A stretch of 64,000 bases of DNA from Candidatus Heimdallarchaeota archaeon (GTDB lineage Archaea; Asgardarchaeota; Heimdallarchaeia; Heimdallarchaeales; Heimdallarchaeaceae), in the NCBI GenBank assembly GCA_019057375.1, contig DXJF01000114.1, forward strand, positions 1 to 64,000, in the 5' to 3' direction. Position numbers and translations under genes: made by a program. The notes beneath the pieces were generated by a model. That model was not told the origin of the DNA. It saw only the letters and a list, made by a program, of their open reading frames with translations, and did no database searches. Positions 4,431 through 44,968 of the stretch are shown here, piece by piece (position 1 is the stretch's first letter; each line of letters begins with the position of its first letter).

Positions 4431-5459
4431 TTGATGGTAGAGCTTAGAGGATTGATGATAAATAGATTAATTGTTTTACTTCAAATTTTCATATTTCCAG
4501 CATATTTCTACATTTGGATGAATATAGAACCGATGAAAAGTGTAACTCTAGATGGCTTCTTTTTCTGGGGAACCAATCCTTTATCAGGAACACCAGAAGC
4601 AGTTATATTAAGAGGTATAGCTCCGCTAATTTTTGCACTGCCGTTTTCACTTGTTTCCTTAGTTAAAGCAACACGAGTCGCTAGTTCATACGAGCTCATG
4701 TGGAGAGCCTTAGGAAAAGTAAGAATTGATACAAAAATTTTTTACATGGTTAATGCAATTTTCTGTTTGTTCTTTTTAATTTTACCATTTGGAGCTCCTC
4801 TAATATCTGTGTTTGGAGCGTTTTTTGCAGTTAAACTAATATTATATGCATTTGGAGTCAAAAAGAATGTACCTACAATTTTAGTTGTCATCCCAGGATT
4901 ATTTCTAGCTGCCATCCCTTTGATGATAACAATTGCTTTCTTTGTGGAGTATTCAAATGTATTCGTACCAATTTGGAGTATATGGACAAGTTACGCACCA
5001 ATTTTCTATGGAGTGGTTTTATGCTTAGCCTGCGCGATTGCTATAGGCAATTTCTTGATGCTTCTTAGAGAGGGGGCCTCACAAGTGTCCTATAAGAAGG
5101 AAATTGCTGATAGAATTGGTTTAGTTATTAAGATGTTTTTGTTTGGAGGAATCTTGGCACTCTTTGCTTTTGTTGATAAATGGTCTTTGAATGGTCTTTC
5201 AATATTTATTATCAACATCATAGCTGTTGCATTAAGTGTATTCGAAACATTTGTGCGGTGGAGGAAGCAGATGATGAAGGAAACAGGTTCAGGTGGAAGA
5301 ATAATGGTTATTCTCTTCATTGCTGTAAACTTCTTTGTTAAATACATGGCAAGACCTGAAATAGCAATCACAATAATTGTTGCATTGTCAGCATGTATAT
5401 TCTTTGCGCTCTTCATTGTAGCGTATAAATATGCAACAGATGAAACATTATTTGAGTAA
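4431..5459 (+). CDS. Multipass membrane protein, unknown function
   Basis: 342-aa ORF with about nine hydrophobic segments. Confidence 0.6.
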   Translation: MMVELRGLMINRLIVLLQIFIFPAYFYIWMNIEPMKSVTLDGFFFWGTNPLSGTPEAVILRGIAPLIFALPFSLVSLVKATRVASSYELMWRALGKVRIDTKIFYMVNAIFCLFFLILPFGAPLISVFGAFFAVKLILYAFGVKKNVPTILVVIPGLFLAAIPLMITIAFFVEYSNVFVPIWSIWTSYAPIFYGVVLCLACAIAIGNFLMLLREGASQVSYKKEIADRIGLVIKMFLFGGILALFAFVDKWSLNGLSIFIINIIAVALSVFETFVRWRKQMMKETGSGGRIMVILFIAVNFFVKYMARPEIAITIIVALSACIFFALFIVAYKYATDETLFE

Positions 5460-8487: not shown

Positions 8488-8710
8488 CACGTTATGAAAC
8501 TTGGTTAAACTTGCCAGAGGCTTTCTAACCGTCGTTTAAGTGGGTCCCCTCACGTGCGTTGAGGGGAAGTCATCCAGACTTTGTTCTGGAATAGTAAGTG
8601 GGCCTTCAGCATAGAGCTAGCTAGGCTCCCCGTTTCATGGTAAGTTTACTGAGAGACAACCACTTGTGTAGTTGCGAAACAGGTAGGTGCTGAAGCGCAC
8701 ACTATCTAGC
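8488..8710 (-). ncRNA. Putative omegaRNA-like structured RNA inside the element
   Basis: Lies downstream of a TATA box; multiple stems (CTTCAGCA/TGCTGAAG, CAACTAC/GTGGTTG, TCCAGA/TCTGGA, TCCCCTC/GAGGGGA); ends at the element right end. Confidence 0.55.
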
Positions 8711-8736: not shown

Positions 8737-9439
8737 CCCGAAGAAAAAAAAACACCCATGCTTCTCTTTCCTACATCTCCCCATAACTAGGTAGAGGACG
8801 CATGGCAAGATTAGTCAACTTTACCACAAACAGTTGTGCACGGTCAAAGGATTACCTTGAAATCCAGCCATCGAACTAACTAAGATAATTCCACCTCTTT
8901 CTCTCTTCTTCATTAATTTACCAAAATAATCAACTAATGTTACAGGTCCTCTACAGTTAATATTAATAACATTAAAATGTTCTTCCAAATCAAAATCCAG
9001 AAATGGACCTATGGGAATGATTGCAGCATTATAGACCAACGTACCAATTTCAATATCCTTAGTATGCTCTTTTATAATCTTAATTACTTCTGAATCTGCT
9101 AAATCTGCACTAATTATTCGAACATGTACTCCATGTGTTTTTTCTATATCTCTTGATAATTTTTCAAGCAGTGGTTTTCTCCTTGCAACCAGAACAAGAT
9201 TGATGCCTTTATCTGCAAGAACCCTAGTAAATGCTTCGCCTATTCCTTGAGAACCCCCCGCAATCAGTGCCCAAGGTCCGTACTTTTGTTTGAATCGTTC
9301 TTTTTTCATATGCGAAACAGCTATCAATTGAAGTTTATTAAAAAGATTAAGTAAATTAATTTTACAAGATTTTATTGGAATGTTTCTAATGTTTTGGAAG
9401 AAGTTTGGTTAGAAAAAGGAGAAAGATGAAAAAGAAAAA

Positions 9440-34283: not shown

Positions 34284-35354
34284 ATGGCAACTAGTTCTTC
34301 TAATGTTTTAAATGAAGGTATTATTACCACTAGAAAAGAAAAAAAAGCGGTACAAAACAAAGCTTCTAGATATCTTTCCATTGATGTTTTCAGAGGTCTA
34401 GCAATAGTCGCAATGATTTTTGTTAATGTGATAGCTCCTTTCAATAAAGTCCCAGCATGGTCAAAGCACGCACTTGATTATGGCTTAACCTATGTTGATC
34501 TAGTTACTCCTTTCTTTATCTTTGCAATCGGCTTAACTTACACAATGTCTTTTAATCGCTATTTCGAAAAAAATGGTTGGTTTCAAACATTTCTAAGATT
34601 CTTACGAAGGTATGCAGCATTTTATGGCATGGGGATGATAGGAGCTATGTACTTCTTCACAGATAAAGGAATAGTTTTTTCTTGGGGGGTTCTACAAGCT
34701 ATAGGATTAGCAGGTAGTTTCACCTTATTCTTTCTAAAGTTTCCAAGAAGTGTGAGATTTGCGGTTGGTATTGGTTTATTAGTTGCATATCAATATATTT
34801 TGACTATACCTGTAGAAGTAGGTATAGATACTATATCCTTAGCTGATCTAAATTTAGATGATGTTCATGGTGGAATAATTGGAGGTATTGGTTTCTGTAT
34901 TCTACTGCTTTTATGTACAGCAATAATTGATGACTTTCGTAAAACAAACAAATGGTGGATTCTGGGTTGTGGGGGAATTTTTACTACAGCAGGAATTATT
35001 TTACATTTTGTTTGGAAATTAACAGGTTGGCCGTTATACGGGGGAATCTCCAAAGAGAGGGTCACCGCATCATATATCCTCCTCACAGTTGGATTAGGTT
35101 CAATTCTTTTCTGGTTGTTATGGTTTATCTATGATAAAAAACAGATTACGAAGAACAGAAGCATTTTACAACCAATTGGGAGAAATTCATTTTTTATCTA
35201 TATAATTCACCCCATAATGATTATGTTAACACAATTAATCTTACCAATCGACACCCACTTTGCACTTGTAATGTTTCTAGGAATAGTTAGTGTGGTTATT
35301 TTGTGGACTGTATCGTTCTTTCTTGATAAGAAGAAAATCTACATAATAATATGA
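34284..35354 (+). CDS. Heparan-alpha-glucosaminide N-acetyltransferase-like membrane protein
   Basis: RYLSIDVFRG, DLVTPFF and GVLQAIG motifs. Confidence 0.8.
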   Translation: MATSSSNVLNEGIITTRKEKKAVQNKASRYLSIDVFRGLAIVAMIFVNVIAPFNKVPAWSKHALDYGLTYVDLVTPFFIFAIGLTYTMSFNRYFEKNGWFQTFLRFLRRYAAFYGMGMIGAMYFFTDKGIVFSWGVLQAIGLAGSFTLFFLKFPRSVRFAVGIGLLVAYQYILTIPVEVGIDTISLADLNLDDVHGGIIGGIGFCILLLLCTAIIDDFRKTNKWWILGCGGIFTTAGIILHFVWKLTGWPLYGGISKERVTASYILLTVGLGSILFWLLWFIYDKKQITKNRSILQPIGRNSFFIYIIHPIMIMLTQLILPIDTHFALVMFLGIVSVVILWTVSFFLDKKKIYIII

Positions 35355-35367
35355 TAAATGAGGTATA

Positions 35368-36285
35368 ATGATGAAAGTAGTAGAAGATATTACACAACTC
35401 ATTGGAGAAACTCCCTTAGTAAAACTAGGAAGGCTCTTTCCAAACTCTGAAATTTTTGGCAAATGCGAATTCATGAACCCTTTAAGTGTAAAGGATCGTC
35501 CTGTTCTGCAAATCTTTAGTGATGCTGAAGAACAAGGTTTGATTAAGCCAGGAGATACTGTGATTGAATGTACAAGTGGAAACACAGGAATGGCAGTTTC
35601 TTTGATTGCAGCCATAAAGAATTACAAAGCAATTTTAGTCATGTCAGAAATACAAAGTATTGAACGACGCCAAATTCTTAGTGCTTTGGGAGCTGAATTG
35701 ATTCTGACACCTGCGGAATTAGGGACTGAAGGGTCCCGACAGAAATTAAAGGAATTATTAGAAGAAAACCCTGATTACTTTTATATAGGACAGCATGTGA
35801 ATTCTTCAAACCCCAAAGCCCATTATCTATCAACTGGTCCTGAACTATGGGAACAAACAGAGGGAGAGATAGATATTCTAATTGCAGGATTAGGTACAGG
35901 AGGAACAATATGTGGTGCAGGTAAATACTTGAAGGAAAAAAATCCAAATGTACAATTGATTGCAGTAGAACCTTTTGAATCACCTTATATCTCTAAGGGA
36001 ATATTCAAACCCCACAAAATAATGGGCACAGCACCAGGATTTGTACCTGAAACACTTGACAAGGATATAATTGATGAGATATTTCTGGTTAAACAAGCTG
36101 ATGCTTTTGAGATGTGTAGAAAAATGGCATTAATAGAAGGTATTCTAATTGGAATAAGCTCAGGAGCAGTATGTGAGGCAGCAAAACAAATTTCGAAAAG
36201 AGTAGAGAATAAGAAAAAGAAAATTGTTGTTGTTTTAGCGGATACAGGACAAAGATACTTGAGCGTGGAAGGATTATTTGTTTGA
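35368..36285 (+). CDS. cysK: Cysteine synthase
   Basis: IGETPLV, SVKDR, TSGNTG, GLGTGGT and DTGQRYLS. Confidence 0.92.
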   Translation: MMKVVEDITQLIGETPLVKLGRLFPNSEIFGKCEFMNPLSVKDRPVLQIFSDAEEQGLIKPGDTVIECTSGNTGMAVSLIAAIKNYKAILVMSEIQSIERRQILSALGAELILTPAELGTEGSRQKLKELLEENPDYFYIGQHVNSSNPKAHYLSTGPELWEQTEGEIDILIAGLGTGGTICGAGKYLKEKNPNVQLIAVEPFESPYISKGIFKPHKIMGTAPGFVPETLDKDIIDEIFLVKQADAFEMCRKMALIEGILIGISSGAVCEAAKQISKRVENKKKKIVVVLADTGQRYLSVEGLFV

Positions 36286-36298
36286 TTTAAAAGAGGAG

Positions 36299-36321
36299 TG
36301 GTGGGGCAGGGCGGATTCGAA
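36299..36321 (-). pseudogene. 3' fragment of an intronless tRNA-Val(GAC) (allele A): T-loop to CCA
   Basis: Minus strand TTCGAAT CCGCC CTGCCCC A CCA; T-stem CCGCC differs from the intact gene and complements GGCG of the 5' fragment. Confidence 0.85.
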
Positions 36322-36360
36322 TAGACTCCTTTAAAATGAGGGAAAGGAAGAGTTTTAAGA

Positions 36361-38328
36361 TTGAACGGTAAAATGTACGAGATGAAAGAGCAAAGAATTC
36401 TAGTATTTATTCTGGTATTCTATCTTACTTTAAATGTAAATATAATTAAAGCCAATAGAACTGATACTTTTCTCTTAACAACCACAAACACCTCTATTCA
36501 GGATAATAAAGCATCAACAGTAAGTCAAACCAGTTCATTGTTCATAGATGATGACTCTGATTTCATCACACTTAACTTCCCTGGAAGTGGAACAAAAGGT
36601 GACCCCTACTTAATTGAAAACTATCAAATCATCACCACTGGTAGAGAAGCAGGTATTGATATTCAGAATACAAGTAAACATTTCATTATTAGAAATTGTA
36701 CTATTGAAACTGACAGTTGGGGTATTCGACTAAATGAAATAGCTCCTAATACAGCATCAATCATTGATAATGAGTTCATAGATAATGATTATACAGCTAT
36801 ATCCATCTACAATTCAATTGGAGTTACAATTTCCAATAATAAATTCAAAAATAATGACGAAGCATTATACTTAAGGAAATCTAGTTTCTTAACTATATCT
36901 AACAATACGTTTGAAGAGAATTGGCATGGTTTGCTCACATCTGGAACTGATTCATTAATTATAGAAGACAACTTTTTCTATTCAAATGTAATTGCAATAA
37001 GCATTACAGCAGTTACTGGTTTTTGTATCAAAAATAATGTTTTTAAAAATAATTCCAGATACGGAATGAATCTATATGCAACAGACAACACACTGGTTTC
37101 GAATAATACATGCAGTGATAGTGGATGGCGAGGAATCCTAGTTCGTCAGTCGATGTTTGTTGTTTTAAACCATAACACTCTTACTAATGATGGTATCCAC
37201 ATTGATTATTACTCGGTAGAATATGGAAGTTTTTCAAATAATCAAGTCAATTCTAGAATTCTTGGATTTTTCAAAAATAAGAATGACTTAGAACTAAAAG
37301 ACCCAATTTATGGTCAGTTAATTTTGTCAGACTGTAAAAAGGGAACCATTTCTAATCAAAATCTCTCAAACACAAGCATTGGTATAACATTGTACAATTG
37401 TGAGAAGACCACCATAATAAATAGTACTTGTAACAATAATGACGGTGATGGAATCCAAATTCATAATTCTGATGGATGTTCAGTGAGTAATAACACTTGC
37501 AATAATAATGATAATGGGATCAGTGTTGTAAACTCAAATCATTGTAATGTATCGAATAATATCTTACTTGGGAATTGGGAGAGCATAGAATTAACAAAAT
37601 CTAACTCAGCAGAAATTAATCTAAACAAATGTTCATTTAACAAAAACCATGGAATAACAATAATAAATTCCGAATATGGATTTGTAACTAATAACAATTG
37701 TTCAGATAATCATAACGATGGAATTCGAATACTAAGTTCAAATTATTTCGTGATTGCTAACAACTCGTGTATAAATAACAGAGAGGAGGCAATTTACTTA
37801 ATAACAACTATTGTTTCTATTGTTTACAATAATCTCTGCAAAAATAACACAAACGGGATATACATCGGACATTCAGGATTTAGTCCTATTCCTGAATTTG
37901 TACCCCCACCTCCAGATTCATATTCGGAAGTAATTTCTAATCATCTTGAAGAAAATAGTAAATATGGAGTTTATCTTAATCGACTGACTCAGGATAACAG
38001 CATACATCATAATTCCTTCATTAATAATGGTGAGGAAGGAATAGCACAAGCTTATGACACAGGATATAGAAATACTTGGTTTGATAAGAAGACAAATGAA
38101 GGTAATTTTTGGTCTGATATGGGGACCGGATCTTATGAAATTGCAGGAGAAGCAAATTCAATCGACAAATATCCGCTAATGGAACCCAAAATGATAGAAA
38201 TGCCGGAAATTCCATCAAATTGGCCAACTTACAGAACTAAATCTAATCCACAAATAATATGCATAGGAATAGTGACATTAGTTATTCTGAAACGTAGAAA
38301 ATTAAGATTTAAAAGAAGAAAAATCTAA
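36361..38328 (+). CDS. Right-handed parallel beta-helix (NosD/CASH-like) secreted surface protein
   Basis: Signal peptide (likely start 36382); GSGTKGDPYLIEN; Asn-rich PbH1 repeats; GNFWSD; TM plus basic tail. Confidence 0.85.
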   Translation: MNGKMYEMKEQRILVFILVFYLTLNVNIIKANRTDTFLLTTTNTSIQDNKASTVSQTSSLFIDDDSDFITLNFPGSGTKGDPYLIENYQIITTGREAGIDIQNTSKHFIIRNCTIETDSWGIRLNEIAPNTASIIDNEFIDNDYTAISIYNSIGVTISNNKFKNNDEALYLRKSSFLTISNNTFEENWHGLLTSGTDSLIIEDNFFYSNVIAISITAVTGFCIKNNVFKNNSRYGMNLYATDNTLVSNNTCSDSGWRGILVRQSMFVVLNHNTLTNDGIHIDYYSVEYGSFSNNQVNSRILGFFKNKNDLELKDPIYGQLILSDCKKGTISNQNLSNTSIGITLYNCEKTTIINSTCNNNDGDGIQIHNSDGCSVSNNTCNNNDNGISVVNSNHCNVSNNILLGNWESIELTKSNSAEINLNKCSFNKNHGITIINSEYGFVTNNNCSDNHNDGIRILSSNYFVIANNSCINNREEAIYLITTIVSIVYNNLCKNNTNGIYIGHSGFSPIPEFVPPPPDSYSEVISNHLEENSKYGVYLNRLTQDNSIHHNSFINNGEEGIAQAYDTGYRNTWFDKKTNEGNFWSDMGTGSYEIAGEANSIDKYPLMEPKMIEMPEIPSNWPTYRTKSNPQIICIGIVTLVILKRRKLRFKRRKI

Positions 38329-38334
38329 AGAGTA

Positions 38335-38443
38335 TGGTGGGGCAGGCAAGATTCGAACTTGCGACTTCCTCCACTTTTTGTCTGTAGGTTTTCCACCTTG
38401 CAGATGTCAAGGAGGTATCATAGCCAAGCTAGATCACTGCCCC
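38335..38443 (-). tRNA. tRNA-Val(GAC) (allele B) with 31-nt intron (38375-38405), probably at 36/37; CCA encoded
   Basis: Full cloverleaf GGGGCAG...CTGCCCC A CCA; intron hairpin TCTG/CAGA plus AGGT/ACCT; relaxed BHB. Confidence 0.92.
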
Positions 38444-38478
38444 TTTTGCCGATAAGCTTTTCGCCTACTTTTCTTTCC

Positions 38479-38504
38479 TTGTTTTCTTTAAATGTTTTTT
38501 GTTA
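38479..38504 (-). promoter_or_regulatory. tRNA promoter block (BRE/TATA-like) of allele B
   Basis: 25/26 identical to 40745-40770 at the same distance (36 vs 37 nt) from the tRNA 5' end. Confidence 0.65.
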
Positions 38505-38641
38505 TCCAGCTCTTTTAGTCAAGTAGACAAATTCGCAGAAAACATGGACAAGCTAGCCATATCCTTTGCAAGAAGTATAAACAGACAACAGAGAGGAAAA
38601 ACCCATCATAACAGAAGATTTTATCGAGTTTAAAAACCATT

Positions 38642-40594
38642 TTGTGGATATTGTTACTGAGTGAATTGGTCACACAAGCAACAAGTAAAACTCAAACAAT
38701 TATGTCTCCCTCGTCAAAGGGAGTGATGAGAAGTTATCAGGTGGTGCTCAAGTGTATAGACCAATCCCAAAGAGAAGAGATTAACCAGAGAATAAAAACA
38801 TTAGAAGAACAACAAAATCAGCTACTCACCCCTCAAGTTGTCAAGCAAGCAGTAGAACTCTATAGAACCAATCCCAAAGAAGGATTTTTCACACGCCAAC
38901 TCTGCAAAAAAGTAGGGAAAAGTCCAAATATTGCAGAAAGTGCTTTCCACTGGTTATACATAGCTATCAAAGGAAAGATAGATAAGGAGAAGAAAGTGGA
39001 AGGGTTATTGAGCTTTCTTTTGAAAAATCCTCAACAGCTGATAGAATGGCTGATTTTTGGTCGTTCCCCTTATACTGAGCGAAGTTTAGAAAACTATTGG
39101 AGACTAAAAAGAAAATATATCATTAACCTCCTCACCAGTACTAGATCCAAAACTGATTCCTATTGGAGAAAAAAACACAAACACAACTATTTTGCTGACT
39201 TCCTACAATTCAACGACTCCCTTCCTTTTACGTCACAAACTGATATCCTCCAAGCTCTTGATGATGCGCTGTTTTACTACAATCATGAATTTTCTCTCAT
39301 CCCACAGCTTACCAAAAATCAGAAAGCATTTCTGAAAAAACTCCAACTCTTAAAGAAGGAACAAAAAACTGTAGTACCTTTTCTCACTTCATGGATCAAA
39401 GGTCCTCAAACTTCTCGATGGAAAAGTCTCAAAACTCTCTCCGAACAACTAGCTTCAATTATAGGCAAACCTTCTCGAAAACTCTTTTCAGTAGTTAGAC
39501 TGATAATTGTTTTCACACTCTTTGATCATTACATGCAGAGTGTCCCTCAGTTAGTTAAGGCTCTCCCTATTGCTAATGTTGTTCCCCTACCATTTAAACG
39601 AAAAAAGAAAGGAAGATTACCAATCAAATTGCTAATGAAGAAAAACTATGTTATCACCCGTCAAGGGAATGCTCAAGAATTGACTGATCAGGTAAAAAAA
39701 CAAGGATGGACGGAATTTTGTTTTCCGCAAAAGGGAAAACAGCGACTAACAGCTCAAGTTCACTTTCCTAAAAAAGTAATAGGGTATATTGGAAATGGTG
39801 CACACTTCAAAGTCTTCCAAGTAAGTAGTGGACAAGCTCCTAGTTTCAAACCTAGGGTGGATGTGGTACTCGAAGGAGCTCATGCTTGCTTCCATTCATC
39901 CAAACTTCTTCACCGTTATCTTGCTAATGTTTCTGCAAAGAAAGCTTCTATTCTTGGAGTAGATATTAACCGCTTAGGACAGTATATGGTCGTGTTTAAC
40001 ACCCCTATCCCTCTGCCTCCAGATTTACTAAACTTAGCAGCACACTATAAACATCTCAGCACAAAAGTTCTGGATGAGTTGAACACAGGTTTTCTCCGTA
40101 AAAGAAAAGAGTATGATTCCCACGGGTGTTGTAAACTTAAAGGTGAACTTGACCGTGTTTATACTCGTCGCAGCCGCATCCTTCGCGAAATCACTTATCT
40201 CCTCCCCCACTTTCTTGCTGCAGTAATGGTGAAAAAGAAGTGTAAAGTGTTAAAGATTGAACGTTTAACTGTTGATCCTACCGGCACCAGAGGAGCTTTA
40301 GCTAAAGCTATTTACACCATGCCCGATAGTTTGTTCATTTACAAAAAAGCAGTGTGGTTAGCTTCTTTGGAGTTAGGGTATGATGTGCAGTTAGAAGCAG
40401 TTCACCCATATCATACCAGCACCATTCATTACGGATGTGGAGGTCTTCTTACTCGTCAAAAAGGTCAGTATGATGTTGCTCCTTGTAAAAAGTGTGGTCA
40501 AAAGGTCCCTACTCATGCTAATGCTGCCAAAAATATTGCTTCCCTTCAAGGTATCTTTCTTCCTCCCGATTCCTTCCCCTCAACGCACGTGTAG
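38642..40594 (+). CDS. tnpB: Large TnpB/Cas12f-like RuvC protein (likely start ATG 38702, 630 aa)
   Basis: RuvC-I ILGVDIN, RuvC-II VLKIERL, HPYHTS-x-HxxC...CxxC zinc finger, RuvC-III THANAAKNI. Confidence 0.85.
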   Translation: MWILLLSELVTQATSKTQTIMSPSSKGVMRSYQVVLKCIDQSQREEINQRIKTLEEQQNQLLTPQVVKQAVELYRTNPKEGFFTRQLCKKVGKSPNIAESAFHWLYIAIKGKIDKEKKVEGLLSFLLKNPQQLIEWLIFGRSPYTERSLENYWRLKRKYIINLLTSTRSKTDSYWRKKHKHNYFADFLQFNDSLPFTSQTDILQALDDALFYYNHEFSLIPQLTKNQKAFLKKLQLLKKEQKTVVPFLTSWIKGPQTSRWKSLKTLSEQLASIIGKPSRKLFSVVRLIIVFTLFDHYMQSVPQLVKALPIANVVPLPFKRKKKGRLPIKLLMKKNYVITRQGNAQELTDQVKKQGWTEFCFPQKGKQRLTAQVHFPKKVIGYIGNGAHFKVFQVSSGQAPSFKPRVDVVLEGAHACFHSSKLLHRYLANVSAKKASILGVDINRLGQYMVVFNTPIPLPPDLLNLAAHYKHLSTKVLDELNTGFLRKRKEYDSHGCCKLKGELDRVYTRRSRILREITYLLPHFLAAVMVKKKCKVLKIERLTVDPTGTRGALAKAIYTMPDSLFIYKKAVWLASLELGYDVQLEAVHPYHTSTIHYGCGGLLTRQKGQYDVAPCKKCGQKVPTHANAAKNIASLQGIFLPPDSFPSTHV

Positions 40595-40654
40595 GGGACC
40601 CATTCAAACGACGGTTAAATAGCCTCTGCAAGTTTAACCAAGTTTCATAACGTG
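40573..40654 (+). repeat. Element right end / 3' part of omegaRNA scaffold
   Basis: 82-nt repeat shared with 8488-8569; hairpins CCCCT/AGGGG and GGTT/AGCC conserved, with changes in the loop. Confidence 0.85.
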
Positions 40655-40708
40655 CGCCGACTTCCTCCACGTCAAGGAGGTATCATAGCCAGGCTAGATC
40701 ACTGCCCC
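40655..40708 (-). pseudogene. 5' fragment of intronless tRNA-Val(GAC) (allele A), truncated in the T-stem
   Basis: GGGGCAG TG ATCT AGCCTGGCTA TGAT A CCTCC TTGACGT GGAGG AAGTC GGCG, then the element end. Confidence 0.9.
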
Positions 40709-40744
40709 CTTTTATTGATAGGTCTTTCTTCGTTCTCTTCTTTC

Positions 40745-40770
40745 TTGTTTTCTTTAAATATTTTTTGTTA
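40745..40770 (-). promoter_or_regulatory. tRNA promoter block of allele A
   Basis: Minus strand TAACAAAAAATATTTAAAGAAAACAA; homologous to 38479-38504. Confidence 0.65.
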
Positions 40771-41057: not shown

Positions 41058-43673
41058 ATGGATAAAAGTGTAGCAATGTCTTTAAAAATCGTTGGTTTTC
41101 TCCTTATTCTTACTTCTGCCTGGGTACCTATATATACAATTACATTTGATTCTACAACAACTGAACCTGAACCAATTATTCTTGTTGGTTCTCAGAGCAT
41201 TACTGGAGTCCTTCATAATGTATATTACGAAAATAATCTAGCATTTGTAGTAGATTCAGATACAGGGTTAAATATTGTAAATGTAACTGATGCAACAACA
41301 CCTGAGATTATTGGGACATACAATATTGCAAATGGGGCCAATGGTATATTCGTGAAGGATAACTATGCTTACATTGCAGATACGGTCACAGGATTACAGA
41401 TTGTTAATATTACTGACCCTACTTCACCAACACAAGTTGGTACATATAGTATTACAGGAGGGGCCACTGATGTATTTGTATCAGGAAATTATACTTACAT
41501 TGTAGATTCAACAATAGGGTTTCAAATACTAAATATTAGTGACCCAACAACACCAACACAAGAGGGTGTATTTAGTATTTCAGGGGAAATAAACAGTTTA
41601 ATTGTAAAAGATGAATTCGCATATATTGTAGATTCAGTAACTGGTTTACGTATTCTAAATATTACTGACGCAACTTTACCAAGCTTGGTTGCAACCTTCG
41701 ATGTAAACGAACCAGTATATGATGTAGCTGTTTTAGGAAGTTATGCTTACATTGTTGGTGAAAATATTGGCATACAAGTAGTAAATATAAGTAATCCTCA
41801 ATCTCCCGTTCTCACTAGTTCTTATTATATTGAAGGAAATGTCAATGGAATACATATTGAAAATGAACATGCATATATTGTTGATTCGACTGTTGGAATA
41901 CAAATTGTTTCAATTATAAATCCAGAAGAATTAACTATTGTAGGCTCACAGGAAATTACAGGAGAGATATATGGAATATTCGTAAAAGATGGATATGCAT
42001 ATGTTGTAGGATCAGATCTAGAAATCTTTATAGTAAGACCCAGATCTGAGTATGATTCATCAGGTACACTAGTACGAATCTTCGGTTTCAAAATCGATTA
42101 TAAAATGTTAACTTACAGTAGTGCAAACAACCTCGCTCAAGAACGATTCTTGGAAGCAGAAACACCCAGTAGTGTTGTTATTCTTGCTGCAGCTTTGTGG
42201 TTTATACTAATCTTTGCTACAGCTGCTGTTGTTTTGGGTCAGGTTTTTCAAAGTGGTGGTTTCAAATCGAGGGGCACTATTGCAGATATTGCTGCAGGAA
42301 TTCTTTTACTTTTGGCTCTGGTAGTTGCTATTTTATCAATGAGCAGATCAATGATTATAGCAGCAGAAAGATACCAAGCTTTAGTAACGGGACAAACTGC
42401 AGCCTCAACGGTGCCTCTTACGTTTAACCCGAATGATTCTACACCAGCTTACTTTGACATTGGTTTAACAGGTTCAGTTGGACCAGGATTCTACATATTC
42501 ACCATTGGAATATTAATGATGGTAACTGGTATCTTTCTACCAGTCAATTGGCAACAACCAACCAGCTCCAAAATGTCAAGAAGAATTGGTGATACTGGTG
42601 TTCTTAGATGGGTTAAAAACATAGCATCATTAAGATTAACTACTTATGTTACTAGAAGATTATTAACACTTATTCCTCTCTTCATTGCAATATGTGTGAT
42701 GACATTTGTAATGGTAAACGGAATGGGTGACCCAGTTGCATTATTGCTACTTGGAAAACAAAGAGTAACGGAACAAGATAGGATAAATCTTACTAAAAAA
42801 CTTGGTCTAGATCAGCCCATTTATATTCAATTCGTTACTTGGTTCTATAACCTTATACGAGGGGACATGGGTATAAGTTTCCAATCAGGTCAATCAATTA
42901 ATAATATGATTGGTGGATTAATTTGGGAAACTTTAAAGCTTCAGTTAGCATCATTTGTGCTAGCTTTGCTTATTTCGATACCTTTGGGTGTTTTAGCAGC
43001 AAAGAATCAAAATACTTGGATTGACTCAGCTGCAAGTTCTTTCGCACTCTTAGGTCTCTCAATGCCAATTTTTGTGTTTGGTTTATTAATGATTTATATA
43101 TTCAGCGGATATGGTTTAGGATGGTTCCCAGCTGCAAAAGCTCACCGAATACCAGCGCCCACGCCTGTGTTTAGTCAGACGAACTGGCAATTATTCTGGT
43201 CAGGGCAGTGGGGAGGTGTTGGTGGATTTTGGAATAATGTAGGTGTAAGATTAGGGGATTCACTCCTTCATATGGCTTTACCAACTATAACTTTGACATT
43301 TGCTTTCTTAGCCCTATATACTAGGTTAGTTAGGGCAACAATGCTTGAAGTTCTTAGACAAGATTATGTCTTATCTGCAAGAGCAAATGGAATATCTGAA
43401 AGAACCATTACATGGAGACATGCATTCAGAAATGTTTTGATCCCTGTAGTAACCTATGTTGGGTTGTTTATGGCTACAGCTTTAGCTGGAGCTCCAATTA
43501 CTGAAACACTCTTCACATGGCCGGGTTTAGGATTCAAATATGTAGGTGCGGTGCTTCTTTTGGACTTCCCGATGGTCTTAGGTACGACGGCGATTCTGAC
43601 TTTACTTATCTTACTAGGTAACTTGATAACAGATATTGCTTATGTTGCGGTAGATCCGCGTATAGAACTATGA
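41058..43673 (+). CDS. Fusion: 4-TM domain with inserted LVIVD repeats plus OppB/DppB-type ABC permease
   Basis: About six LVIVD repeats (YAYIAD..TGLQIVNITDPT.P); C-terminal GLDQPIYIQF...LARANG.SE.TI..RHAFRN...DIAY..VDPRI. Confidence 0.85.
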   Translation: MDKSVAMSLKIVGFLLILTSAWVPIYTITFDSTTTEPEPIILVGSQSITGVLHNVYYENNLAFVVDSDTGLNIVNVTDATTPEIIGTYNIANGANGIFVKDNYAYIADTVTGLQIVNITDPTSPTQVGTYSITGGATDVFVSGNYTYIVDSTIGFQILNISDPTTPTQEGVFSISGEINSLIVKDEFAYIVDSVTGLRILNITDATLPSLVATFDVNEPVYDVAVLGSYAYIVGENIGIQVVNISNPQSPVLTSSYYIEGNVNGIHIENEHAYIVDSTVGIQIVSIINPEELTIVGSQEITGEIYGIFVKDGYAYVVGSDLEIFIVRPRSEYDSSGTLVRIFGFKIDYKMLTYSSANNLAQERFLEAETPSSVVILAAALWFILIFATAAVVLGQVFQSGGFKSRGTIADIAAGILLLLALVVAILSMSRSMIIAAERYQALVTGQTAASTVPLTFNPNDSTPAYFDIGLTGSVGPGFYIFTIGILMMVTGIFLPVNWQQPTSSKMSRRIGDTGVLRWVKNIASLRLTTYVTRRLLTLIPLFIAICVMTFVMVNGMGDPVALLLLGKQRVTEQDRINLTKKLGLDQPIYIQFVTWFYNLIRGDMGISFQSGQSINNMIGGLIWETLKLQLASFVLALLISIPLGVLAAKNQNTWIDSAASSFALLGLSMPIFVFGLLMIYIFSGYGLGWFPAAKAHRIPAPTPVFSQTNWQLFWSGQWGGVGGFWNNVGVRLGDSLLHMALPTITLTFAFLALYTRLVRATMLEVLRQDYVLSARANGISERTITWRHAFRNVLIPVVTYVGLFMATALAGAPITETLFTWPGLGFKYVGAVLLLDFPMVLGTTAILTLLILLGNLITDIAYVAVDPRIEL

Positions 43674-43690
43674 TAAACAGGTGATATGAG

Positions 43691-44968
43691 TTGCAAAAAG
43701 CTAAGAAAACACAAAAAGGGTCTTTTTCTAAAAGACTTGATAATTACTTAGTGGAAAAAAGGTTACCAAGATCTATGTCTTGGGCTGGAGCACTCGCTGT
43801 GCTCTGGCAGCACTACTACCTTAACTATATCATACAATTCTTAGGGATTATCTTAATATTTGGAATTGGATTACCATATGGTCTTAGAGCATTCGGAGTT
43901 TCCATGAGTGTAGACGGTGTTCGACTAGGACCAATTGGATCTCCATTCGCATATCTTATCTATATAGGAATCGTAGCATTAGTATGGGTTGGTGTAAAGG
44001 TAGGTTGGAGATATTACCAGAAGGTAACTGGTAAGAAAGAAATGATTATTGCAAAAGATGGAACTCTTCGAGAAAGAAGTCCTTCTCAATGGACACTTGT
44101 TTGGAGAAGATATAAGAAAAACAAAGTTGCAGTCTTATCTGCTACTCTCGTAGTTGGAATCACAATTCTGGCAATTACTTATCCAATCTTGATGCCCTTT
44201 AGCCCTGTAGGAACTTCCCCCCTGTTTGATGCATGGAATGGAGGTGGTTCTTTAGCTAATCCAAATCTAAAGTATCCTGGAGGAACAGATATTCTTGGAA
44301 GAGATGAATTCTCAAGGTTACTTGCTGGTAGTGAAGTTTCCTTAACTGTAGGATTATTCTCAACTGTGATGTCTGTTCTAATAGGAGTAACATTAGGTGC
44401 CCTTGCTGGATACTATAGAGGATGGACTGAAGAAATTATTATGAGAATTACAGACATGTTTCTCGCTCTACCATTTCTTGTAATAGCAATTCTAGCAGTT
44501 TCATTCATCAGAAGAGGAAGATTAGTTTTTTTGAGACGGATACCACAATCAATAGTTATTATTATTGTACTAGGAATATTTGGTTGGGCAGGACTATGTA
44601 GGTTAGTCACAGCTAACACGAAGCAGATTTACAACTTAGATTATGTAAATGCTGCAAGAGTATTAGGAGCAAGTAATCGGAGAATCATTTTAGTCCATAT
44701 ACTACCGAATATTTTAGCTCCTATCATTGTTATTGCCACAATATCCATTGCAGGAGGAATTCTCTCAGAAGCAGGATTAACCTTTTTAGGTTTAGGAAGT
44801 CCAACAACGATTTCTTGGGGACAGATGGTTAATGAAGCACAAACGGTTCTTAAAACGAACCCAGAATTAGCGCTTCTACCAGGATTCGCAATATTCTTTG
44901 TAGTACTGGCATTCAACTTGCTAGGAGACGCATTAAGAGATGCGCTAGATCCAAGATTAAGAGAGTGA
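43691..44968 (+). CDS. oppC: Oligopeptide ABC permease OppC/DppC
   Basis: GTDILGRDEFSRL, EAA-like YVNAARVLGAS and GDALRDALDPR. Confidence 0.9.
   Translation: MQKAKKTQKGSFSKRLDNYLVEKRLPRSMSWAGALAVLWQHYYLNYIIQFLGIILIFGIGLPYGLRAFGVSMSVDGVRLGPIGSPFAYLIYIGIVALVWVGVKVGWRYYQKVTGKKEMIIAKDGTLRERSPSQWTLVWRRYKKNKVAVLSATLVVGITILAITYPILMPFSPVGTSPLFDAWNGGGSLANPNLKYPGGTDILGRDEFSRLLAGSEVSLTVGLFSTVMSVLIGVTLGALAGYYRGWTEEIIMRITDMFLALPFLVIAILAVSFIRRGRLVFLRRIPQSIVIIIVLGIFGWAGLCRLVTANTKQIYNLDYVNAARVLGASNRRIILVHILPNILAPIIVIATISIAGGILSEAGLTFLGLGSPTTISWGQMVNEAQTVLKTNPELALLPGFAIFFVVLAFNLLGDALRDALDPRLRE

Follow-up and report, generated by a model that had tools for sequence, protein, structure and literature searches.

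The window, that is, the whole stretch of 64,000 nucleotides analysed here, raises the question of how a genome can live with a TnpB-type element inside a single-copy tRNA gene, and whether the guide predicted for this TnpB stands in a functional relation to a second copy of the gene that is carried within the same insert. The sequence at the centre of the question, positions 40655-40677 (CGCCGACTTCCTCCACGTCAAGG), comprises the first 23 nt of the chromosome past the right end (...CATAACGTG, closing at 40654) of an insert of 4,333 bp (36322-40654, plus strand), and is antisense to positions 52-30 of the resident tRNA-Val(GAC), the 5' part of which lies here on the minus strand.

The resident gene (allele A) is found on both sides of the insert. 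Its 5' fragment, tRNA positions 1-52, occupies 40655-40710 on the minus strand and still has its native promoter region in place (40711-40770, minus strand), with spacing and sequence as in relatives, at approximately 350 nt upstream of an LVIVD/ABC-permease gene (41058-43673). The 3' remnant (36299-36321, minus strand) contains the T-loop, the 3' strands of the T-stem and the acceptor stem, and the CCA. The insert is absent from two sister species (G013 and G009), in which the flanks abut inside one intact tRNA gene. In detail, positions 1-1483 of the G013 locus (L021) align with 34839-36321 of the window (94%), the remnant being continuous with 1461-1483, and positions 1485-1540 align with 40655-40710 (100% over 56 nt). 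The intact and intronless tRNA of this empty site reads ...GGATTCGAA-C-CGCCGACTTCC..., where the single C is tRNA G53, a base that is lost from the occupied locus; the left remnant there ends in ...ATTCGAA. The empty site of G009 (L019) gave the same outcome, and in same-genus relatives an intact, intronless tRNA-Val(GAC) is located directly upstream of the ortholog of 41058-43673. Allele A is split between tRNA positions 52 and 54, in the T-arm, by an element that integrated at AAC/CG (slashes mark the borders of a core dinucleotide or of an intron throughout). An assembly chimera is unlikely, since both halves of allele A join up at a single AC/CG site and the left junction was assembled independently, in identical form, in a further relative (G024). 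The unbroken allele that the original prediction had reconstructed is a real one, and the letters given for the flank and for 38359-38380 were confirmed by direct reading; the upstream ATTCGAAC had been borrowed from the carried copy, the true remnant of A ending without G53, and the rest of the reconstruction was correct.

A complete tRNA-Val(GAC) with encoded CCA (allele B; 38335-38443, minus strand; Rfam tRNA 49.3 bits, aragorn (gac) i(40,31)) lies within the insert, about 200 bp upstream of tnpB and on the opposite strand. It folds as a cloverleaf (z = -3.3), carries an intron of 31 nt in the anticodon loop (38375-38405) and is the only intact GAC isoacceptor gene among the 40 tRNAs listed for the 89%-complete assembly, in which an intact tRNA-Val(UAC) is present elsewhere. 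The earlier claim that the insert brings a rescue copy was thereby upheld. The promoter region of allele B (38445-38504, minus strand) is 74% homologous to that of allele A and the homology stops at 38504, from which point the sequence is internal to the element. Both tRNA 5' halves, together with ~60 nt upstream, form a diverged direct repeat, D1, with 95% identity in the tRNA and 74% upstream. A TnpB element has split the resident tRNA, and the genome lives on the carried, motif-less and intron-bearing copy.

The TnpB-like gene (38642-40594, plus strand) encodes 650 aa in its longest frame, and its relatives are 622-647 aa long. Weak matches to Pfam and NCBIfam are confined to the C-terminal TNB/zinc-ribbon region; phmmer against 8hr5 gave 4e-05. 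An AF2 model of the protein (30 homologs, mean pLDDT 87) retrieved with Foldseek top matches that are all Cas12f, TnpB or other Cas12 structures (probability 1.00). As modelled, the protein has the fold of the TnpB/Cas12 superfamily, with the WED/REC/RuvC/zinc-ribbon architecture. Invariant residues occupy RuvC-I (D441) and RuvC-II (E540) and an HCCC zinc finger is retained, whereas in place of the canonical D-E-D triad the RuvC-III residue is a His (H625), which aligns with the RuvC-III Asp of CnCas12f1. The respective motif, NTHxNAA, is held in every family member examined, the weakest of ~150 representatives included. Conserved D-to-H branches at RuvC-III, mostly archaeal, were described by Altae-Tran et al. 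2023 (PMC10691335), and their conservation was argued to imply retained activity. The family of the window resembles these rearranged branches in the conserved His at the Asp position, but RIIIr-4, the largest D-to-H clade of that study, is without the zinc finger that the window's family keeps. The locus points to a clade of 650-aa D-E-H TnpBs with putative activity.

The right end (40553-40654, plus strand) resembles an omega-RNA scaffold, with two conserved hairpins spanning the stop codon, followed by the tail AAGTTTCATAACGTG. The consensus fold from an alignment of 35 copies has 19 pairs, three of them with compensatory changes; the hairpins lie within the last ~85 nt, and the high conservation of the module leaves little covariation. 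With up to 27 copies per genome, the 95-nt right end is present in 22 of the 25 genomes of the genus, and it is conserved in more than 170 copies. Its boundary was placed with ~40 copies from 22 of the 25 genomes, in which similarity ends at ...TTTCATAACGTG; among the copies of the genome that carries the window (G000), similarity ends at ...CATAACGTG and the flanks beyond are variable. Judged by sequence alone, a conserved hairpin module ending at 40654 and a variable flank after it form an omega-RNA-like arrangement. The claim of a TnpB element was in this respect borne out, as the flank starts exactly where the hairpin-forming right end stops. G000 holds 10 full-length family copies, and three of the seven close ones have in-frame stops.

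In one relative (L215), an ORF upstream of tnpB encodes a TnpA with MerR and Resolvase domains (9e-10 and 8e-24, respectively). Since relatives carry such a serine-recombinase TnpA, the family is, by its sequence features, of the IS607 type. Of the 17 elements whose left end can be recognised, 16 have a left flank ending in AC. CGT (or TGT, AGT, CTT) comes next, and in 13 of the 17 this trinucleotide recurs past the right end. A 3-nt target-site duplication was considered and set aside in favour of an IS607 core dinucleotide, since CG(T) is near-constant and relatives have the serine TnpA; an IS200/IS605 identity was rejected as no Y1 TnpA was found in G000. The cognate serine TnpA is absent from the element of the window, and a search of G000 (89% complete) with the L215 TnpA as query returned no homolog; four Resolvase matches in this genome lie on other contigs and are unlike the family TnpA. 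According to the literature, IS607 TnpA recombines at a core dinucleotide and the target motif equals the TAM of the TnpB. Such a core is seen at the right junction of the window copy and at the empty site, but not at the left junction.

Two further loci of the family were observed. A solo right-end module is located at 8488-8589 of the window (minus strand) with no TnpB-like ORF beside it; it adjoins a short SDR-family ORF of 168 aa (8821-9327) which may be truncated. In L230 (G024:C26, the CSMAG_2326 contig), the right-end flank of a canonical element at 5013-5030 is CGTGCCCCACCA, which repeats the last 12 nt of an intron-bearing tRNA (2648-2778) placed ~170 nt left of the element's left end. 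This is another link of tRNA 3' ends with the TnpB element family.

The empty site reads GAAC/CG/CCGAC and the right junction ...CGTG/CG/CCGAC.... In the predicted guide flank (40655-40677, plus strand) CG is therefore read as the core dinucleotide, and the remainder is antisense to tRNA positions 50-30. The match exceeds chance, with a single perfect hit of the flank's 20-mer in the window against zero in 100 shuffles. The predicted guide equals allele A by construction of the insertion, so the match is no evidence of function. A genome-wide search for a DNA target of this guide in G000 found none nearer than three mismatches, and the closest site behind an AAC motif is allele B itself (3 mismatches in 16 nt). 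The equivalent site in allele B (38356-38374, plus strand) is AAC/TT/GCGACTTCCTCCAC, followed by the intron; the AAC is kept and the CG core is gone. The stretch 38359-38380 reads TTGCGACTTCCTCCAC/TTTTTG, with ATTCGAAC just before it, and allele B has GAAC/TT/GCGAC, that is, ACTT for ACCG with the next base also different. These three changes are the 5' strand of a swap of three base pairs in the T-stem (GGCGG paired with CCGCC to GCAAG paired with CTTGC).

The original prediction had described the three changes as mismatches in the guide seed. Allele B is indeed, as far as its letters tell, no match to the predicted guide, whether CG is counted as TAM or as guide. Since CG is the recombination core, two of the three supposed seed mismatches destroy the core/TAM-like motif and one guide base is changed as well. 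The immunity of B to the element's own guide stands in the same restricted form, as a predicted non-target, and the differing bases are explained by the T-stem swap, which is native in two relatives (G011 and G001). The intron had been said to break the pairing from position 17, and it does begin only after nt 16 of the predicted guide region, so it would matter only with a guide longer than 16 nt. A role as armour is not needed to explain it, homologous introns being native in G015 and G014; this is the weakest part of the functional claim as read from the sequences.

The cargo left of tnpB includes, besides allele B, a gene for a NosD/right-handed beta-helix surface protein of 655 aa with a C-terminal anchor (36361-38328, plus strand; Pfam NosD 9e-44, Beta_helix 1e-42). 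An ortholog with 70% identity sits natively between a PALP gene and tRNA-Val in G005, and G017 keeps a remnant there. This placement suggests a cargo taken from the orthologous locus in another lineage of the genus, comprising the NosD-like gene and a complete tRNA-Val(GAC) with its own promoter and intron. TAGACT at 36322 was tried as a canonical left-end terminus and rejected, because G017 has a similar AGACT-containing sequence natively upstream of its NosD-like gene, in the corresponding place. At this eroded left junction the C+CG of a canonical integration is missing, and TAGACT belongs to the native NosD upstream region.

The insertion is older than the split of G000 and G024 (~5% divergence). 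In G024 (L072, C13, 600-2830) the same left junction and NosD cargo are found, and TnpB is lost. The cargo is 94.7% identical between the two genomes and the flank 95.4%. This equal divergence indicates an old insertion, vertically inherited, and not a recent invasion. The tRNA-Val(GAC) of G024 is a hybrid in which the A-type promoter and 5' half are joined with the intron and 3' half of B. This is the product expected of recombination across the two tRNA 5' halves, through which a lineage with an intronless resident gene gained an intron.

Neither the intron nor the T-stem of allele B seems to have arisen with the element. In G015 and G014, the native tRNA-Val(GAC) has introns homologous to that of B, with no TnpB hit in a search within ~1.5 kb, and the GCAAG T-stem occurs natively in G011 and G001. 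Both features are, by this sequence comparison, older native polymorphisms of the genus. The native tRNA-Val(GAC) of G011 (L014, C105, 1562-1639), which has neither intron nor element, differs from that of G013 only in three T-stem pairs, by which the ACCG motif is removed. A parallel case is found for tRNA-Val(CAC) at a syntenic, element-free locus (~1501-1579) of G009 (L250, C6) and G013 (L251, C135). There the flanks and acceptor stem are native and the core is identical to that of a rescue copy carried by a second element of G000, described below, so that the allele type is discordant with the species relationships. At both loci, therefore, element-free hybrid alleles exist in which the changed tract is centred on the target motif. 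On their sequences, such alleles are compatible with selection against the motif, with gene conversion induced by breaks, or with ordinary exchange of tRNA alleles.

This second element, of ~3.66 kb, is located on contig C145 of G000 (about 90645-94302; loci L005 and L073) and splits a tRNA-Val(CAC) in the anticodon loop at CCAC/TG/TGAGAG. It shares the architecture of the window element: the 5' fragment is followed by the right end, TnpB, a rescue tRNA in opposite orientation, three small ORFs without Pfam hit, and the 3' remnant. The two TnpBs are 74% identical. The rescue tRNA-Val(CAC) reads CTCGG/TG/TGAGCG; it is diverged, with 6 mismatches in 20 nt, and is without the AC motif. Cognate pairing is thus found twice, with the GAC-bearing element in the GAC gene and the CAC-bearing element in the CAC gene. 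The informative part, unlike the automatic match of a guide to its own empty site, appears to be that the rescue copies of two independent elements are both motif-less in sequence.

The arrangement seems to be rare. In a pattern search over 47 genomes of the order, a right end joined to a tRNA-Val fragment was found only in G000. Among 31 further TnpB loci from named Heimdallarchaeota MAGs, aragorn found no tRNA gene within 3 kb, and Rfam found one (L230, 2648-2778), so this count depends on the tool. A metagenome pattern for a right end with a tRNA-Val fragment was too loose to be informative, since the right end was absent from all 80 loci retrieved with it.

Some observations on tRNA neighbours were made along with this survey. 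The sequence TCACA is present at both junctions of the C145 element (about 90606-94347), and a C-5 DNA methylase gene lies just past the 3' remnant. On contig C47 of the same genome (49566-51760; L008), a 3' portion of tRNA-Leu is found on each side of a family member with 45% identity, whose right end ...CATTACGTG continues into CGTGGAACGGATG.

Taken together, a TnpA-less, IS607-derived TnpB element that disrupted a resident tRNA and replaced it with a copy which its guide would not target appears to be the somewhat probable account of the locus. Following TnpB/IS607 biology, transcription of the omega-RNA would run through the right end and give it a guide identical to allele A in its unbroken form. 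Given an active D-E-H RuvC site, intact A-type alleles would be cut by the ribonucleoprotein, whether restored copies, copies on a sister chromosome or incoming DNA. The element's own locus would be spared as it has no motif 5' of the flank; allele B would be spared too and would now supply the tRNA function. By analogy we infer the cutting of A, the sparing of B and the selection of B for this sparing. In favour of the account are the empty sites of sister species, which fix the insert to the base, and the same left junction in G024; the fold, the invariant D441 and E540 and the hairpin right end; the AC before the core, the shared trinucleotide and the MerR and Resolvase TnpA of relatives; and, for the replacement, B as the sole intact GAC gene, the C145 element and the motif-less hybrid alleles at native loci. 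It is weakened by the His at RuvC-III in all ~150 family representatives, which leaves retained activity putative, by the failure to find a Y1 or a cognate serine TnpA in the 89%-complete genome, by the left junction without the expected C+CG and by the in-frame stops in sister copies. The loss of TnpB from G024 with no apparent harm also counts against it, and so does the fact that the differences between A and B in the guide region are not enriched beyond one T-stem swap.

A broader reading is tentatively entertained as a possibility: that IS607-type TnpB elements of Heimdallarchaeia practise a natural, RNA-guided form of breaking and rescue, in which a single-copy tRNA gene is split, a motif-less replacement is brought along, and the cutting of unbroken alleles forces either copying of the element or gene conversion to a resistant sequence. 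If true, it would account for the hybrid tRNA-Val alleles of the sister species and would move tRNA introns between lineages.

The same observations, carried to their extreme, would describe a full gene drive, with TnpB cleaving unbroken A, so that either the entire element is copied or the cell is lost, and with B selected as a recoded, intron-armoured rescue. The tight linkage of rescue and nuclease agrees with this, and two independent cognate pairs, GAC and CAC, are hard to obtain by chance. The AC motif with its CG or TG core is missing from both rescue copies, and the tract of the hybrid, seemingly resistant alleles is centred on the target, as conversion after cleavage would give. Against it, there is no sign of horizontal spread, with G000 alone occupied among 47 genomes of the order and a cargo as diverged from G024 as its flank. 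Nor do the recoding and the armour fit well, because native polymorphisms already supply both the intron and the GCAAG T-stem and the intron lies beyond a 16-nt guide, and the His at RuvC-III keeps nuclease activity putative. We regard a full drive as doubtful.

The opposite view, also rather unlikely, is that of an inert relic. In that case chance, or selection for nothing but the spare tRNA, fixed a non-autonomous IS copy along with a stretch of foreign sequence, neither TnpB nor the guide has a role today, and the mismatches of B are ordinary differences between lineages. The missing TnpA, the eroded left junction, the pseudogenised sister copies and the deletion of TnpB from G024 by recombination of the tRNA 5' halves would all be expected of such a relic, as would the guide match, which any TnpB has to its own empty site by construction. 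On the contrary, the 650-aa ORF has stayed intact although the insertion predates the G000/G024 split, no variation is seen at D441, E540 or H625, and the right end shows strong conservation. Chance fixation also leaves aside the cognate pairing of rescue and target, which occurs twice, the motif-less rescue alleles at two loci and the hybrid alleles in relatives.

A role at the RNA level, in which RNA of the element binds or senses tRNA-Val or a nuclease-dead TnpB acts as a repressor, is very improbable. The predicted guide is antisense to mature tRNA-Val (guide nt 4-23 would pair with spliced allele B, leaving no more than one mismatch), the native promoter of A would drive antisense transcription into the right end, and the His in place of the RuvC-III Asp would suit a dead nuclease. 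Against this, the family is a multicopy IS with variable flanks and not a fixed regulator, the predicted guide has no DNA target in its own genome, and TnpB is not known to target RNA. A classical tRNA-targeting integrative element with integrase and att duplication, and TnpB as a passenger, can hardly be maintained even though integration into tRNA genes is common and the insert is flanked by a duplicated portion of tRNA, since the 4.3-kb insert has no integrase (its ORFs are NosD-like and TnpB-like only), the break adjoins the IS right end at the family's AC/CG motif, and the duplication is a whole diverged gene with promoter and not an att core.

For the disrupt-and-replace reading, the closest known systems are IS607 elements with a serine TnpA, TnpB and omega-RNA, such as CboIStron (bioRxiv 10.1101/2023.11.20.567912) and ISFba1 with its TnpB (PDB 8iaz). 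They share with the present family a MerR and Resolvase TnpA upstream of tnpB (in relatives of the window copy), a core dinucleotide at both ends behind a short target/TAM motif, the TnpB fold, and a structured 3' end followed by a variable flank. The copy of the window differs in its irregular left junction and missing TnpA, in the His instead of Asp at RuvC-III, and in its cargo of 2.2 kb, which includes a replacement for the broken gene; with 650 aa, its protein is also ~200 aa longer than the TnpBs of ISDra2 and ISFba1. The 'restorative homing' of TnpB in IS605 and IS607 elements (PMC13565253) is similar, as its guide matches the allele without the transposon and there is no TAM at the locus of the element itself. 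In the window, on the other hand, the targeted single-copy tRNA gene remains broken, with function coming from a linked, motif-less copy, and the missing left core makes precise excision unlikely.

A likeness from the tRNA side is found in Caldiarchaeum subterraneum, where disruption of tRNA-Thr(GGU) linked the integration of a mobile element to intron gain and the scattering of tRNA fragments (Sugahara et al. 2012, PMC3293823). That case also has a 5' tRNA fragment with its native upstream region, a multicopy IS and an intact tRNA with an extra intron. However, the Caldiarchaeum element encodes an 813-bp ORF of unknown family, its tRNA part is limited to positions 1-27 and an intron, and no RNA-guided nuclease or guide logic was proposed for it. 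No published TnpB element with a substitute for the tRNA that it disrupts came up in literature searches.

In engineered cleave-and-rescue or toxin-antidote drives (ClvR, TARE), an RNA-guided nuclease is directed against an essential gene and is linked to a recoded rescue copy invisible to its guide. At the level of the letters, allele B is such a linked copy, one which the predicted guide would not recognise. The arrangement of the window, in contrast to these drives, is natural, prokaryotic and transposon-derived, is known here from its sequence, and has as its rescue a natural allele of a related lineage without designed recoding. If the TnpB cuts the unbroken tRNA allele, the locus would be a natural counterpart of the engineered drives, and a homing element would survive inside an essential gene by a route other than splicing. 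Irrespective of cutting, the comparative data indicate that a resident tRNA allele was replaced by a transposon-derived element, that an intron was handed to a lineage with an intronless gene, as the scar in G024 records, and that the tRNA-Val alleles of close relatives differ exactly at the target motif of the element. The old idea that mobile DNA shapes archaeal tRNA genes, with respect to introns, fragments and allele turnover, gains here a concrete and testable locus.

A few minor observations concern tRNA-Val(GAC) in other genomes and the neighbourhood of the split gene. In G018 (L020, C52, 315-392), the acceptor strands of this tRNA, GGGGCAG and CCACCCC, are unpaired, and the tRNA 3' end and downstream flank resemble another clade, which indicates either a recombinant gene or a mis-join of the MAG at the tRNA. 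In G014 (L032/L039, C79, ~44426-44627), the native gene has two introns, of which the second is nearly identical to that of allele B. The gene downstream of the split tRNA in the window (41058-43673) encodes LVIVD beta-propeller repeats fused to an ABC-transporter permease domain (BPD_transp_1), and residues ~37-318 are missing from its orthologs in several relatives.
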